Under the pieces are notes generated by a model. That model had not been told where the DNA came from and made no database searches. It worked only from the letters and a program-made list of their open reading frames with translations. A stretch of DNA of 64,000 nt from Escherichia coli (GTDB taxonomy: Bacteria; Pseudomonadota; Gammaproteobacteria; Enterobacterales; Enterobacteriaceae). Both the position numbers and the translations under genes were made by a program. The stretch lies in the NCBI RefSeq assembly GCF_024502345.1, contig NZ_JALDNN010000001.1. One strand, written 5' to 3'. How positions within the stretch are numbered: position 1 is the first letter of the stretch; each line of letters opens with the position of its first letter. Shown one piece after another: positions 5,742-31,025 of this stretch.

Positions 5742-6599
5742 TCAGGCTACCGCTTTTTCAGTTTGTTGCGCTTTCAGCCAGGCGATCTCTTCTGCCCAGA
5801 TATCCGGGTTGATGGTTTCAAGGATCAGCGGAATGCCGTCGAAACGGTCGTCCTGCATGATCCAGCGGAACGCATCATGACCGATATTGCCTTCACCGAG
5901 GCTATGATGGCGGTCAACGCGGCTGCCAAAGGTGCTTTTCGCATCGTTAAGGTGCATCCCGCGCAGATACTTAAAGCCGACAATACGGGCAAAATCAGCG
6001 AACGTTTTCTCGCATTCGGCTGGAGTACGCAAATCATACCCGGCAGCGAAAGCATGGCAGGTATCAATGCAGACGCCGACGCGGGATTTATCTTCCACGC
6101 CGTCGATAATCGCCGCGAGATGTTCGAATTTAAACCCTAAGTTACTGCCCTGACCGGCGGTGTTTTCAATCACCGCGGTCACACCTTGAGTTTTATCCAG
6201 CGCAATGTTGATGGATTCGGCAATACGCGCAAGGCAATCCTCTTCTGAAATCTGCATCAGATGGCTGCCAGGGTGGAAGTTGAGCAAAGAAAGCCCCAGC
6301 TGTTCGCAACGCTGCATTTCATCTATAAAGGCATCGCGCGATTTTTCCAGAGCTTCAGTGACCGGATGTCCGAGGTTAATCAGATAACTGTCGTGGGGAA
6401 GAATTTGCGCCGATGTGTAGTGATATTTTTCACAGGCGGCTTTGAATTCATCGATGGTTTGCGTCGTGAGCGGTGCGGCACGCCACTGACGTTGGTTTTT
6501 GGTGAACAAGGCAAACGCGGTTGCGTCGATTTCGGCGGCGCGAATTGCGGCATTTGCCAGACCGCCAGCAGCACTAACGTGCGCTCCAATGTATTTCAT
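5742..6599 (-). CDS. nfo: Endonuclease IV
   Basis: 285-aa [42 protein letters not shown], recognised as E. coli Nfo. The stop lies 2 nt before the yeiI start. Confidence 0.97.
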
Positions 6600-6606
6600 G
6601 CGAGGA

Positions 6607-6658
6607 CTCCTGTTAAACCCGCTGGAGGAAAACGGTAATGATAGCGGGTTAACAGGAG
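6607..6658 (-). promoter_or_regulatory. 16-bp hairpin between yeiH stop and nfo start that contains the nfo Shine-Dalgarno
   Basis: Arms 6607-6623 (ctcctgttaaacccgct) and 6643-6658 (agcgggttaacaggag) pair over 16 bp with one bulged A. On the minus-strand RNA the AGGAG located 7 nt upstream of the nfo AUG is part of the 3' arm. Confidence 0.5.
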
Positions 6659-6672
6659 CAAGATGTAGTGGT

Positions 6673-7722
6673 TTATGCGATGACGCTTTGAATCACATAG
6701 TTAATCGCACCACCACCAACAATCAGCCAGGCAAACAGAACCAGTGCCATCAGCAGAGGTTTCGCCCCGGCTTTTTTCAGCGCGCTGACGTGAGTGGTCA
6801 GACCCAGCGCCGCCATCGCCATTGCCAGCAGGAAGGTATCCAGCGTTACCAGCATGTTCACCACGCTCTGCGGTAACAGGTGGAACGAGTTAAAGATGGC
6901 AACTACGATGAACAAGATGGCAAACCACGGAATAGTGATTTTGCTTTTCTCGCCGCTGTTCGCCCCAGACAGCTGTTTAACACGCGCCGCCAGCAGGATG
7001 AGGAACGGAGCCAGCATCATCACGCGCAGCATTTTGGAAATAACTGCTGCGTTTTCCGCATCCGGGCTGATGGCATGACCTGCCGCCACCACCTGCGCCA
7101 CTTCGTGCACAGTAGAACCAATGTAGATACCGAAAGTTTCCGGACTAAACCATTGAGACATCAGCGGATATATCGCCGGGTAGAGGAAAATCGCGATGGT
7201 CCCGAAGATAACAACGGTTGCAACAGCCACGGTTACTTTACTGGCTTCCGCTTTCACTACCGGCTCAGTCGCCAGTACCGCGGCAGCACCACAGATACTG
7301 CTACCGGCACCGATCAACCAGCTGGTGTGCTTATCCAGACCAAACACTTTCTGCCCCAGGAAGCAAGCCAGCAGGAAGGTACTGGACAGCGTCAACACGT
7401 CAATGATGATCCCACTGATACCGACATCGGCAATTTGCGAGAACGTCAGACGGAAGCCATAAAGAATGATACCCAGACGTAATAAATATTGCTTGGCAAA
7501 CAGCACACCACCGTCACAGCTTTTCCAGATGTGCGGATAGATGGTGTTGCCTAAAACCATCCCCAACAAGATTGCGAGGGTGAGGGCACTAAACCCGGCA
7601 CCCGCAACCGCGGGAATGGAACCACCCCACAGGGCGACCCCGGTGATAACTGCACTCAGGGCTAACCCCGGAATAAAATGCCACAGTGTACGATGTTGTT
7701 TCTGTAAGGTGATATTCGTCAT
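6673..7722 (-). CDS. yeiH: UPF0324-family inner membrane protein
   Basis: 349-aa polytopic ORF, divergent from the LysR gene yeiE as in K-12. Confidence 0.88.
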
Positions 7723-27166: not shown

Positions 27167-28117
27167 ATGCGTGTGTTACTGGCACCGATGGAGGGAGTGC
27201 TTGACTCTCTGGTGCGTGAATTGCTGACCGAAGTTAACGACTACGATCTGTGCATCACCGAGTTTGTCCGCGTGGTGGATCAACTGCTGCCGGTAAAAGT
27301 CTTTCATCGCATTTGCCCTGAGCTACAAAACGCCAGCCGGACACCATCTGGTACGCTGGTGCGCGTGCAGTTGTTAGGTCAGTTCCCACAATGGCTGGCA
27401 GAGAACGCCGCCCGTGCGGTGGAGTTAGGTTCCTGGGGCGTGGATCTCAATTGCGGCTGCCCGTCGACAACGGTTAACGGTAGCGGCGGCGGGGCGACGT
27501 TACTCAAAGATCCTGAACTCATCTACCAGGGGGCAAAAGCGATGCGTGAAGCTGTACCGGCGCATTTGCCTGTCAGCGTGAAAGTGCGTCTGGGCTGGGA
27601 CAGCGGTGAGAAGAAATTTGAAATCGCCGATGCGGTTCAACAGGCTGGCGCTACGGAGCTGGTGGTGCATGGGCGGACGAAAGAGCAGGGTTACCGCGCG
27701 GAGCATATTGACTGGCAGGCGATTGGCGAGATTCGCCAGCGGCTGAATATTCCGGTGATTGCCAACGGTGAAATCTGGGACTGGCAGAGCGCGCAACAAT
27801 GCATGGCGATCAGCGGCTGCGACGCAGTGATGATTGGTCGCGGGGCGCTCAATATTCCCAACCTGAGCCGGGTGGTAAAATATAACGAACCGCGAATGCC
27901 GTGGCCGGAGGTGGTTGCTTTGCTGCAAAAATATACCCGTCTGGAAAAGCAGGGCGATACCGGGTTATATCACGTAGCGCGGATTAAACAGTGGTTGAGT
28001 TATTTGCGTAAAGAATACGATGAAGCAACAGAATTATTTCAGCATGTTCGGGTGTTGAATAATTCCCATGATATTGCAAGGGCTATTCAGGCAATTGATA
28101 TCGATAAGCTGCGATAA
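27167..28117 (+). CDS. dusC: tRNA-dihydrouridine(16) synthase
   Basis: 316-aa [36 protein letters not shown], recognised as DusC (YohI). Confidence 0.95.
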
Positions 28118-28137
28118 TAGTGGAATCGCAGCTTATC
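28103..28137 (+). terminator. 12-bp hairpin spanning the dusC stop codon
   Basis: gataagctgcga-(11 nt)-tcgcagcttatc. No U-run follows. Confidence 0.4.
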
Positions 28138-28229
28138 AGAGACAATGAATCGCTTATTCAGCTTCATCATCTTGTTGCGCTCCTTTCATGAACTAAGCCA
28201 CATATTGCCACTGGCGCAAGGTGCGCGCA

Positions 28230-28425
28230 GAGGGAGGACAATCGCCTCCTCCCCCTGCACCCCCGGGCTCTGGCGAACAAAATCGCCGCTGCGCGGTACC
28301 TTCAGCTTATCCCCTTCGGCTACCGGGTCGGGCGCGAGGTAACGTCCTTGTAAGACGCGCCCTCAGCCCACATCCATGTGGGCTGCCCCGGCCTTCGGGG
28401 AACGCTTCAGCGATTTTGACGCCAC
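28230..28425. other. GC-rich multi-hairpin non-coding island (unassigned)
   Basis: Local hairpins at 28232-28250, 28330-28362 (GGGCGCG/CGCGCCC), 28366-28383 (GCCCACAT/ATGTGGGC) and 28386-28400 (CCCCG/CGGGG). They are enclosed by long-range pairing of 28272-28286 with 28410-28423 (4 + 9 bp). Flanking DNA is AT-rich. Confidence 0.4.
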
Positions 28426-28504
28426 CAACACCGGAGCTGTTTGCAAATCAAGTACAAAAAATATCTAGTTCCTGACCTGACAACTTATATGCCATATCTG
28501 ATTT

Positions 28505-28590
28505 TTAAAATATCATCTTAAATACGCCAGTCACCACCAGTAGCCCAATCAGGAAAATAATCAATACAGCCCAGAGTATAATTTTCATTG
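28505..28590 (-). pseudogene. yohP: yohP-like small membrane protein gene, apparently frameshifted
   Basis: ATG at 28590 reads MKIILWAVLI. After 2 extra nt (GATTTTATTTTCC here versus GATTATTTTCC needed) the downstream frame reads IFLIGLLVVTGVFKMIF-TAA (stop 28505-28507). Start to stop is 86 nt, not a multiple of 3. The 27-aa YohP sequence is quoted from memory. Confidence 0.45.
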
Positions 28591-28736
28591 GCGTTCCTTT
28601 ATTTGTGAGTGCTGAATAAGTATAGGAAAAAACGAAGCCCTTCGCTGTCATTTATAAGTGATTAAGATAAATCGGAGAATATCATTCACTTAGTCTATAT
28701 TTTTCTGGGTATGTCGTTTTATTGCTACTGATGTAT

Positions 28737-28745
28737 TGCCACGCG
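28737..28745. repeat. IS1 target-site duplication, left copy
   Basis: TGCCACGCG directly abuts the IS1 left end. An identical 9-mer sits at 29514-29522. Confidence 0.9.
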
Positions 28746-28800
28746 GGTGATGCTGCCAACTTACTGATTTAGTGTATGATGGTGTTTTTGAGGTGCTCCA

Positions 28801-29076
28801 GTGGCTTCTGTTTCTATCAGCTGTCCCTCCTGTTCAGCTACTGACGGGGTGGTGCGTAACGGCAAAAGCACCGCCGGACATCAGCGCTATCTCTGCTCTC
28901 ACTGCCGTAAAACATGGCAACTGCAGTTCACTTACACCGCTTCTCAACCCGGTACGCACCAGAAAATCATTGATATGGCCATGAATGGCGTTGGATGCCG
29001 GGCAACCGCCCGCATTATGGGCGTTGGCCTCAACACGATTTTCCGCCATTTAAAAAACTCAGGCCGCAGTCGGTAA
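28801..29076 (+). CDS. insA: IS1 InsA
   Basis: 91-aa [46 protein letters not shown], recognised as IS1 InsA. Confidence 0.95.
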
Positions 29077-29498
29077 CCTCGCGCATACAGCCGGGCAGTG
29101 ACGTCATCGTCTGCGCGGAAATGGACGAACAGTGGGGATACGTCGGGGCTAAATCGCGCCAGCGCTGGCTGTTTTACGCGTATGACAGGCTCCGGAAGAC
29201 GGTTGTTGCGCACGTATTCGGTGAACGCACTATGGCGACGCTGGGGCGTCTTATGAGCCTGCTGTCACCCTTTGACGTGGTGATATGGATGACGGATGGC
29301 TGGCCGCTGTATGAATCCCGCCTGAAGGGAAAGCTGCACGTAATCAGCAAGCGATATACGCAGCGAATTGAGCGGCATAACCTGAATCTGAGGCAGCACC
29401 TGGCACGGCTGGGACGGAAGTCGCTGTCGTTCTCAAAATCGGTGGAGCTGCATGACAAAGTCATCGGGCATTATCTGAACATAAAACACTATCAATAA
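29052..29498 (+). CDS. insB: IS1 InsB' frame (expressed as the InsAB' transposase by -1 frameshift at the A6C site)
   Basis: ORF-track frame 28995..29498 contains ...[21 protein letters not shown]...[25 protein letters not shown]. The slippery site ttaaaaaactc lies at 29050-29060. Confidence 0.9.
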
Positions 29499-29513
29499 GT
29501 TGGAGTCATTACC

Positions 29514-29522
29514 TGCCACGCG
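29514..29522. repeat. IS1 target-site duplication, right copy
   Basis: TGCCACGCG directly abuts the IS1 right end. Confidence 0.9.
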
Positions 29523-29588: not shown

Positions 29589-31025
29589 ATGAATCGTGAT
29601 TCCTTTTATCCAGCCATCGCCTGTTTTCCGCTGTTACTGATGCTGGCCGGGTGTGCGCCTATGCATGAAACCCGCCAGGCGTTAAGCCAGCAAACGCCCG
29701 CTGCACAAGTTGACACCGCATTACCCACGGCGCTGAAAAATGGTTGGCCAGACAGCCAATGGTGGCTGGAGTATCACGATAATCAGCTCACTTCATTAAT
29801 TAACAATGCACTACAGAACGCACCGGATATGCAGGTGGCTGAACAGCGCATTCAGCTAGCTGAAGCCCAGGCGAAGGCAGTTGCCACTCAGGATGGTCCG
29901 CAGATCGACTTTTCGGCGGATATGGAGCGGCAAAAAATGTCGGCAGAAGGGCTAATGGGGCCGTTTGCTCTGAACGATCCGGCCGCAGGTACGACCGGTC
30001 CGTGGTACACCAACGGAACTTTTGGCTTAACGGCGGGCTGGCATCTCGATATCTGGGGAAAGAATCGGGCGGAGGTTACTGCCCGCCTGGGTACGGTTAA
30101 AGCACGGGCGGCGGAACGCGAGCAAACCCGCCAATTGCTGGCTGGCAGCGTAGCCCGCCTGTACTGGGAGTGGCAAACCCAGGCGGCGTTAAACACGGTC
30201 TTGCAGCAAATAGAAAAAGAGCAGAACACCATTATCGCGACCGATCGCCAGCTATATCAGAACGGGATTACTTCTTCAGTTGACGGTGTGGAAACCGATA
30301 TTAATGCCAGCAAAACCCGGCAGCAGCTCAACGATGTCGCGGGGAAAATGAAAATTATTGAGGCACGGTTAAGCGCACTTACAAATCACCAGACAAAGTC
30401 ATTGAAGCTTAAACCGGTCGCGTTGCCGAAAGTGGCAAGCCAGCTTCCTGATGAACTGGGGTACTCCTTACTGGCCCGGCGGGCAGATTTGCAGGCGGCG
30501 CACTGGTACGTTGAGTCATCGCTAAGCACCATTGATGCGGCAAAAGCGGCATTTTATCCTGACATCAACCTGATGGCCTTCCTGCAACAGGATGCGTTGC
30601 ACTTAAGCGATCTGTTCCGTCATTCCGCGCAGCAAATGGGCGTTACGGCAGGCCTGACGCTACCTATTTTCGATAGTGGTCGTCTTAACGCCAATCTCGA
30701 TATCGCAAAAGCCGAAAGCAACTTGTCTATCGCCAGCTACAACAAAGCGGTGGTTGAAGCGGTGAATGACGTGGCGCGGGCAGCCAGTCAGGTTCAGACA
30801 CTTGCGGAGAAAAACCAGCATCAGGCGCAAATTGAGCGCGATGCCTTGCGTGTGGTAGGTCTTGCGCAGGCGCGCTTTAACGCGGGCATCATTGCTGGTT
30901 CCCGCGTCAGCGAAGCCAGAATCCCCGCGCTGCGTGAGCGGGCCAATGGCCTGTTATTGCAAGGGCAGTGGCTGGATGCTTCCATTCAACTCACTGGTGC
31001 GTTGGGCGGGGGTTACAAACGCTGA
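29589..31025 (+). CDS. mdtQ: Outer-membrane efflux lipoprotein (NodT/OMF family), apparently intact
   Basis: 478-aa uninterrupted ORF with a lipobox (LLLMLAGC). Synteny with the K-12 mdtQ (yohG/yohH) locus, which I remember as a pseudogene in K-12. Confidence 0.88.
   Translation: MNRDSFYPAIACFPLLLMLAGCAPMHETRQALSQQTPAAQVDTALPTALKNGWPDSQWWLEYHDNQLTSLINNALQNAPDMQVAEQRIQLAEAQAKAVATQDGPQIDFSADMERQKMSAEGLMGPFALNDPAAGTTGPWYTNGTFGLTAGWHLDIWGKNRAEVTARLGTVKARAAEREQTRQLLAGSVARLYWEWQTQAALNTVLQQIEKEQNTIIATDRQLYQNGITSSVDGVETDINASKTRQQLNDVAGKMKIIEARLSALTNHQTKSLKLKPVALPKVASQLPDELGYSLLARRADLQAAHWYVESSLSTIDAAKAAFYPDINLMAFLQQDALHLSDLFRHSAQQMGVTAGLTLPIFDSGRLNANLDIAKAESNLSIASYNKAVVEAVNDVARAASQVQTLAEKNQHQAQIERDALRVVGLAQARFNAGIIAGSRVSEARIPALRERANGLLLQGQWLDASIQLTGALGGGYKR

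Follow-up and report, generated by a model that had tools for sequence, protein, structure and literature searches.

What is the GC-rich, hairpin-dense block that lies between the genes dusC and yohP of Escherichia coli? The window, i.e. the whole stretch of 64,000 nucleotides that was analysed (contig NZ_JALDNN010000001.1), holds it in the 387-bp spacer in which the two genes converge. A first-pass annotation had marked the block as unassigned and had offered as candidates a structured RNA or 3' UTR element, a MITE-like repeat or the relic of a decayed gene. The island is a known element. It is TRIP1c, the dusC copy of the TRIP1 repeat, which is the same as RRS-dusC. The label 'unassigned' has to be dropped: the element has a name in the literature and a DNA-level role with experimental support. 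It was so labelled because RefSeq carries no annotation at the repeat among the matches listed. As a discovery the island was already known, and it has been under intensive study since 2023; a natural inverted haplotype at dusC and the homology to the TwoAYGGAY motif are our modest additions to the searchable literature.

The composition and folding of the block are as they had been described. GC content is 0.66 across 28200-28400 compared with 0.34-0.42 on either side. As RNA the minus strand folds at -128.6 kcal/mol (z = -5.63) and the plus strand at -107.2 kcal/mol (z = -3.71); the corresponding z-scores for single-stranded DNA are -5.27 (minus) and -4.78 (plus). The controls were 200 dinucleotide shuffles per test, and in none of the four tests was a single shuffle as stable (0/200). 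In each test the block thus folds much more stably than its shuffled versions. An inverted-repeat scan recovered all listed hairpins and the long-range helix. GGGCGCG (28330-28336) pairs with CGCGCCC (28356-28362), the hairpin placed at 28366-28383 is formed by CAGCCCACAT (28364-28373) and ATGTGGGCTG (28376-28385), and the long-range helix joins 28272-28293 with 28403-28423. The GGAGG/CCTCC hairpin exists with a longer arm than given, 12 nt at 92% (GCAGAGGGAGGA with TCCTCCCCCTGC). Similarly, CCCCG (28386-28390) and CGGGG (28396-28400) are complementary, but comparison of copies does not support their local pairing: in alignment A4, introduced below, these bases belong to a longer-range helix (columns 43-47 with 132-136) that shows a compensatory UA<->CG change in four copies.

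Table 1. Features of the element and its flanks, in positions of the window.
Feature	Position	Strand	Evidence or remark
TRIP1c / RRS-dusC element	28163..28446	- (G4-bearing 'sense' strand)	blastn, alignments A2 and A4
Best-conserved core	terminal motif 28174 to ~28440	-	alignments of copies
G4-forming tract GGGGGTGCAGGGGGAGGAGG	28245..28264	-	only GGGGGTGCAGGGGG match in the 64-kb window
G-tract hairpin, GCAGAGGGAGGA 28227-28238 / TCCTCCCCCTGC 28247-28258	28227..28258	.	inverted-repeat scan
Closing long-range helix (equals P1 of TwoAYGGAY) and enclosed multi-branch core	28272..28423	-	fold, Rfam alignment
Hairpin 1, minus-strand loop AUGGAU (AYGGAY)	28364..28385	-	inverted-repeat scan, Rfam alignment
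Hairpin 2, GGGCGCG/CGCGCCC, minus-strand interior UUACAAGGACGUUA	28330..28362	-	inverted-repeat scan, Rfam alignment
Invariant 3'-terminal motif GGAGCGCAAC of the G4 strand	28174..28183	-	alignments of copies
13-bp perfect hairpin across the dusC stop codon (flank, outside the repeat)	28103..28137	+	inverted-repeat scan
dusC, flanking gene	27167..28117	+	
yohP, small-protein gene, flank	28505..28588	-	G4 strand downstream of yohP in sense

The identity of the island follows from its copies. A 261-bp block matches 5425 of the 5426 complete E. coli genomes at a median of three places (range 1-10), which answers the question of copy number. Paralogous copies sit in the aqpZ-lysO (ybjE) and putP-efeU spacers. 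These are exactly the loci of TRIP1a and TRIP1b, and the family therefore is TRIP1, catalogued by Rudd (1999) as TRIP1a (aqpZ-ybjE), TRIP1b (putP-ycdN) and TRIP1c (yohI, now dusC, to yohG) and later surveyed over 6725 genomes (Li et al., 2024; PMC10888264). By blastn the window copy is 91.5% identical to K-12 TRIP1a over 284 bp and 87.9% identical to K-12 TRIP1c over 272 bp (28157-28428), the latter being inverted with respect to the neighbouring genes. The homology over about 265-273 bp with TRIP1a and TRIP1c of K-12 that is expected of a TRIP1/RRS member is thus present. The locus is that of TRIP1c: dusC (yohI) and yohP flank the element, ahead of mdtQ (yohG). A lone G4-forming tract (GGGGGTGCAGGGGGCGGCGG) lies on one strand with all G runs kept; the search used the G4 motif of Pham et al. 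(2024). The K-12 tract contains GGGGGCGGCGG, and the two C>A changes of the window copy lie between the G runs. Between loci, the similarity of copies ends at GGAGCGCAAC. The 64-kb window holds no further TRIP1 copy. A clear hit to a known repeat family had been named as grounds for giving up the original claim, and the TRIP1 match is such a hit because the family occurs in virtually every E. coli genome and is named in the literature. In sum, the window copy shares with TRIP1/RRS of K-12 the locus (dusC/yohI - yohP/mdtQ), 88-92% identity, a G4 tract with hairpins and a GC content of 62-66%. It differs in that it is inverted with the G4 on the leading-strand template, in the two C>A changes of the G4 tract, which are compensated in the hairpin, and in its flanking spacers, which are unrelated to those of K-12.

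A scan of a genome collection with hairpin 1 as the probe gave at least 120 matches; the lack of Salmonella, Citrobacter and Klebsiella among them is uninformative. Because hairpin 1 was the probe, its invariance among these loci is by construction. The informative copy for its conservation is TRIP1d, which was found independently of this probe. The exact 18-nt hairpin GCCCACATCCATGTGGGC is present on many contigs of Sedimenticola metagenome-assembled genomes and of Edaphovirga cremea, which otherwise lack similarity to TRIP1; these may be other repeat families that share the hairpin. Plasmid matches to the element were all typed as non-mobilizable and several are on Mb-sized records; probably they are misfiled chromosomes or fragments. 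One of them, PLSDB CP125156.1 (K. pneumoniae, 5.37 Mb), is a Klebsiella chromosome filed as a plasmid. It has 12 places, in which about 79% of the element is matched at about 84% identity, a copy number much above that of E. coli.

Identity, copy number, orientation and conserved structure of the island come from the present analysis; gap formation by it is presumed from the literature, in which it was established for K-12. Two full-length TRIP1 copies were described by the Cox and Goodman laboratories as RRS-lysO and RRS-dusC (Pham et al., 2023; 2024; Kusi-Appauh et al., 2026; PMC10287960, PMC11194060, PMC13308219). RRS stands for "replication risk sequence", i.e. a sequence which folds upon DNA unwinding so that the replication machinery leaves a short single-stranded gap. 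The dusC element measures 222 bp, lies some 650 kb from dif and has its G4 strand on the template of the lagging strand (Pham et al., 2023; 2024); in K-12 this placement of the G4 strand holds for both RRS loci. In vitro, Pol I, II and IV are blocked by the G4 strand, and in vivo it slows down Pol III. RecA/SSB peaks are at the lysO and dusC repeats (PMC10287960), and both proteins build up on 1.4-2.5 kb of single-stranded DNA adjoining the RRS. Deletion of both copies succeeds only alongside a large amplification or with a replacement, and deletion or inversion of an RRS alters supercoiling genome-wide. According to this model, the fork unwinds the element and the single strand of the lagging-strand template folds into a G-quadruplex and a dense multi-hairpin structure. 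The lagging-strand polymerase is unable to copy the folded strand and the Okazaki fragment is abandoned. A gap of about 0.3-2 kb of single-stranded DNA is left, on which SSB and RecA load, and which, as the RRS authors propose, may relieve topological stress along the border of the Ter macrodomain. We consider it the best overall explanation that the island is TRIP1c/RRS-dusC and works by this published G4/multi-hairpin mechanism, with a probability of about 0.65. A placement of the window copy at 650 kb from dif and at the Ter macrodomain is deduced by synteny only, from the K-12 position of 2.229 Mb. The one other example cited by the RRS authors is the pilE-associated G4 of Neisseria gonorrhoeae, likewise a G-quadruplex that triggers gap formation in replication. 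In contrast to the TRIP1/RRS element it is a short single G4 for pilin antigenic variation that lacks a multi-hairpin core, and the two are unrelated in sequence.

Which strand does the lagging-strand machinery meet in the window? GC skew of the plus strand is positive throughout the eight 8-kb bins, and the genes follow one another in the opposite order to the left replichore of K-12. Therefore, the fork passes dusC before yohP, with the plus strand serving as lagging-strand template. Since the G4 is on the minus strand, the copy is in the 'reverse' orientation with the G4 on the leading-strand template. The window copy thus departs from the RRS rule of a G4 on the lagging-strand template, which concerns activity and not membership in the TRIP1/RRS family. 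Here, the lagging-strand machinery would encounter the weaker C-rich strand. In single-molecule experiments a G4 on the lagging template produced a gap of about 650 nt at essentially every encounter, and the C strand in that position gaps of about 325 nt in about 66% of encounters (PMC13308219). When an RRS was inverted by engineering, neither RecA nor SSB formed a peak at it in vivo. We infer that the inverted window copy still acts, though more weakly.

The window orientation is common. Searched for their junctions, 2001 of the 5426 complete E. coli genomes (37%) have the window type and 3413 the K-12 type; one or the other dusC haplotype was present in 5414 (99.8%). Li et al. (2024; PMC10888264) had listed TRIP1c in both directions, in 2952 and 2789 genomes. 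We found no discussion in the RRS literature searched of what the two directions mean for the RRS model. E. whittamii has the window-type and E. ruysiae the K-12-type haplotype. A simple inversion at dusC-yohP was considered and rejected, for the two haplotypes have unrelated spacers on either side of the element and the element copies are 12% divergent, with identity to K-12 returning to 100% from position 28503 onward. The difference reaches into dusC: the last codons are part of the swapped haplotype (DusC ends in ...IDKLR in the window and in ...IEKL in K-12), and the 13-bp hairpin over the stop codon belongs to the window haplotype and is absent from that of K-12. Because of the spacers, the dusC end and the 12% divergence, a recent clean flip did not occur. 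Thus, at dusC an 'inverted RRS' occurs in nature, in more than one third of complete E. coli genomes and in E. whittamii. Evolution has, so to say, already made the inversion that was made in the laboratory, and such strains can test how much weight orientation has.

This weighs against the mechanism. The published model makes the window orientation weak or inactive, yet it is found at dusC in 37% of complete E. coli genomes; a strict dependence on orientation does not sit easily with strong selection. Further, the G4 model leaves the two GGA-loop hairpins, the most conserved features, unexplained, and copy numbers of 1-10 in E. coli and 12 in one Klebsiella do not fit a simple design of 'two symmetric valves'. 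Selection as such is supported by the occupancy of dusC and by covariation across 23 copies.

Would the distribution not rather suggest a repeat that is selfish or spreads passively, in the way of a MITE or through recombination, without a selected role at dusC and with a structure that reflects its mode of spread? Copy number varies and both orientations occur at one locus. Entire intergenic haplotypes are swapped, not mutated, at dusC-yohP and alx-sstT, and the window copy is nearer to copies at other loci (91-96%) than to the K-12 copy at the same locus (88%). TRIP1a has short imperfect inverted ends, TTGCGCT...AGCGCAA. However, neither a target-site duplication nor a clean empty site nor an associated transposase was found, the inverted end is a weak one of 7 nt which is degenerate in the window copy, and between the haplotypes at dusC-yohP and at alx-sstT the spacer is exchanged in full. 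The MITE-like candidate in its classical form thus did not hold up, although a dispersed repeat and a structured element, as proposed, are each partly true. The 50,697 phage records contained no copy, and the plasmid matches, as mentioned, are of non-mobilizable types. Nearly constant occupancy of the dusC locus, a mean column identity of 88-89% across genera with 12 covarying pairs and the conditional essentiality reported in K-12 also speak against it. A purely selfish repeat is unlikely, at about one chance in ten in our estimation.

In the alx-sstT spacer, examined as an empty site for transposition, the filled haplotype swaps about 190 bp for about 430 bp, so that neither a boundary nor a duplication can be read there. 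Three haplotypes of this spacer exist in E. coli. That of K-12 has an additional repeat of about 75 bp, another is short, and the third bears TRIP1d between unrelated flanks, which suggests that recombination replaced the spacer as a whole. At copA-ybaP, K-12 has ybaQ, implying another haplotype swap.

Structural conservation was examined in alignment A4, which comprises the G4 strand of 23 copies from E. coli, E. albertii, E. ruysiae, E. whittamii, Escherichia isolate E1V33, Kluyvera, Pseudocitrobacter and further Enterobacteriaceae. Mean column identity in A4 is 88%, and 99.4% of cells are paired on the RNAalifold structure. Both sides changed at 12 pairs, compared with 3.1 +/- 1.2 in shuffles (0/500) and 0-2 with slid partners. 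In the closing helix (P1) compensatory changes are at pairs 35/145 and 38/142. The C>A pair in the G tract is offset by G>T on the opposite arm (pairs 198/213 and 201/210, CG in 20-21 copies and AU in two). As both C>A are matched by G>T, it is the hairpin that is kept and not the G runs alone. The hairpin 1 stem of TRIP1d differs at three compensatory pairs with the loop AUGGAU unchanged. Variant pair positions on the G4 strand are G-U rather than A-C, 15 versus 1 in the RNAalifold structure, a ratio which is inflated because the structure was predicted on the G4 strand itself. In a strand-symmetric fold the numbers are 17 versus 7, with p about 0.06 in an unbiased version. The bias is suggestive only. 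Near the 3' end of the G4 strand, AAGGAGCGC can pair with the internal GCGCUCCUU.

The same data bear on coding capacity. The two open reading frames that had been reported (28145-28342 and 28221-28475; 65 and 84 amino acids) exist, cross the element and are Pro/Arg/Gly-rich. This could hint at the relic of a decayed gene, but such a composition is expected from GC-rich palindromes, none of four frames has a Pfam match, and the copies are separated by 1-nt indels and by paired compensatory changes in stems. The relic has no support and practically no probability; coding is excluded for practical purposes, in line with the non-coding character assumed at first. At its 3' end the G4 strand has a conserved Shine-Dalgarno-like AAGGAG followed by ATG (28087-28190, minus). 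The ensuing frame of 27 amino acids (28087-28170) extends into the flank and is unconserved between copies.

Does the element also have relatives outside of this family? An Rfam search of 27500-29200 at E <= 10 aligned the full TwoAYGGAY model (RF01731) with the minus strand of the window at 28.4 bits (E = 0.079), below the gathering threshold of 43 bits; model positions 1-168 correspond to 28280-28419. snoRNA and miRNA matches in this region (E 0.6-10) were discarded as noise. E. coli TRIP1a, TRIP1c and TRIP1d and the Pseudocitrobacter copy scored 30.6-33.1 bits on the G4 strand, again with the full model. Copies from Kluyvera reached 54.2 (genomosp. 3), 54.8 and 53.5 (CHPC) and 44.6 bits (K. 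sichuanensis), all of them above the threshold. The long-range helix is P1 of RF01731 and hairpins 1 and 2 are its two GGA-loop hairpins, so the window copy has P1 and both hairpins of the TwoAYGGAY architecture. Loop 1 (AUGGAU) fits AYGGAY. Loop 2 of the window copy, AAGGAC, deviates at the Y position; in most E. coli copies loop 2 is AGGGAU. What is alike is that, on the G4 strand, a long P1 closes two adjacent GGA-loop hairpins and the model aligns at full length. What differs is that the model covers neither the additional G4 hairpin nor the 3' tail of the enterobacterial element. A Thiotrichaceae member of TwoAYGGAY (57.4 bits) lacks these parts and has no G tract after it. In Kluyvera, Pseudocitrobacter and relatives the repeat is a composite of about 640 bp (e.g. 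positions 6181-6808 of locus L059 from Kluyvera genomosp. 3; the same type at L045, L082, L119, L013, L040, L080 and L012). It consists of a TRIP1-like unit and a sequence-distinct second TwoAYGGAY unit on the opposite strand (37-52 bits), and one Kluyvera genome has at least three copies.

TwoAYGGAY was presented as a probable RNA in human gut samples, gamma-proteobacteria and Clostridiales (Weinberg et al., 2010) and later proposed as a CsrA-binding RNA (Gardner and Eldai, 2015). Among the searched papers that mention TwoAYGGAY none deals with RRS or TRIP1, and a link between the two names was not found. Tentatively, the RRS/TRIP1 core may be a true member of TwoAYGGAY, in which the GGA-loop hairpins and P1, not only the G4, were anciently selected. 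A partner that recognises the sequence, either CsrA bound to RNA or a protein bound to single-stranded DNA, might then act on the core, and the G4 hairpin would be an enterobacterial addition. Seen from the other side, the supposed TwoAYGGAY RNAs of Psychromonas, Thiotrichaceae and gut Clostridia could instead work at the DNA level, as elements that cause replication gaps. The link would tie an orphan RNA motif, known for 16 years, to the one element of its shape for which an experimental phenotype exists, and it marks the GGA loops as obvious targets for mutagenesis.

Possibly, then, the element acts as RNA, i.e. as a structured RNA of the TwoAYGGAY class which is transcribed from the G4 strand and whose GGA-loop hairpins bind a protein such as CsrA. 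The transcript would be the 3' UTR of the stationary-phase gene yohP in the window and of dusC in K-12; because dusC and yohP converge, either orientation puts the G4 strand into a 3' UTR. RF01731 matches the G4 strand with the full model in every copy tested (28-33 bits in E. coli), AUGGAU is kept while the TRIP1d stem around it changes at three pairs, variant pairs are mostly G-U on this strand, and CsrA binding has been proposed for the class. Against this, no promoter and no terminator consensus was found in or beside the element, and in the K-12 aqpZ-lysO copy the G4 strand is antisense to both genes. The gene table of an E. coli CsrA CLIP study has no peak for dusC or ybjE. The G-U excess is partly an ascertainment effect and cannot separate RNA from DNA because G-T wobbles stabilise single-stranded DNA too. 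Finally, the reported RRS phenotypes came from DNA-level assays. CsrB/CsrC-type sRNAs similarly have GGA motifs in hairpin loops, and Rfam clan CL00106 contains both RF01731 and McaS. The island differs from these sRNAs in having two GGA sites in loops and one in the 3' tail rather than 9-22, and in that neither an own promoter or terminator nor a CLIP peak for dusC/ybjE was found. We regard an RNA function as unlikely, if the least unlikely of the alternatives to the replication-gap mechanism.

A simpler role at the 3' ends was also considered, a transcription barrier or mRNA stabiliser between convergent genes in the manner of REP/BIME. The dusC-yohP spacer has no intrinsic-terminator consensus that we could find, the fold is very stable on both strands, and all five known loci are directly after a stop codon (Li et al., 2024; PMC10888264). 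Yet a conserved multi-branch structure of 285 bp with invariant loops far exceeds what a stabiliser needs, and elsewhere the element sits upstream of the next gene in the same direction. This role is quite improbable. The element resembles REP/BIME and ERIC (IRU) in being extragenic, palindromic, GC-rich (REP) and located after stop codons; its sequence has no similarity to REP and probably none to ERIC. REP units are about 35 bp long with hundreds of copies, and ERIC is about 127 bp. That the island is not a REP sequence was rightly noted from the start: naRNA4, the REP-derived Rfam family, did not match over it and did match REP-type elements elsewhere in the fetched loci.

Beyond yohP the window has further differences from K-12. 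Between yohP and mdtQ, an IS1 with insA and insB is present in full (768 bp, 28746-29513) and is bordered by a 9-bp target duplication, TGCCACGCG (28737-28745 and 29514-29522); in K-12 there is no IS1 at this site. mdtQ (yohG, 29589-31025) is an intact open reading frame of 478 amino acids in the window and is annotated as a pseudogene in K-12 MG1655.
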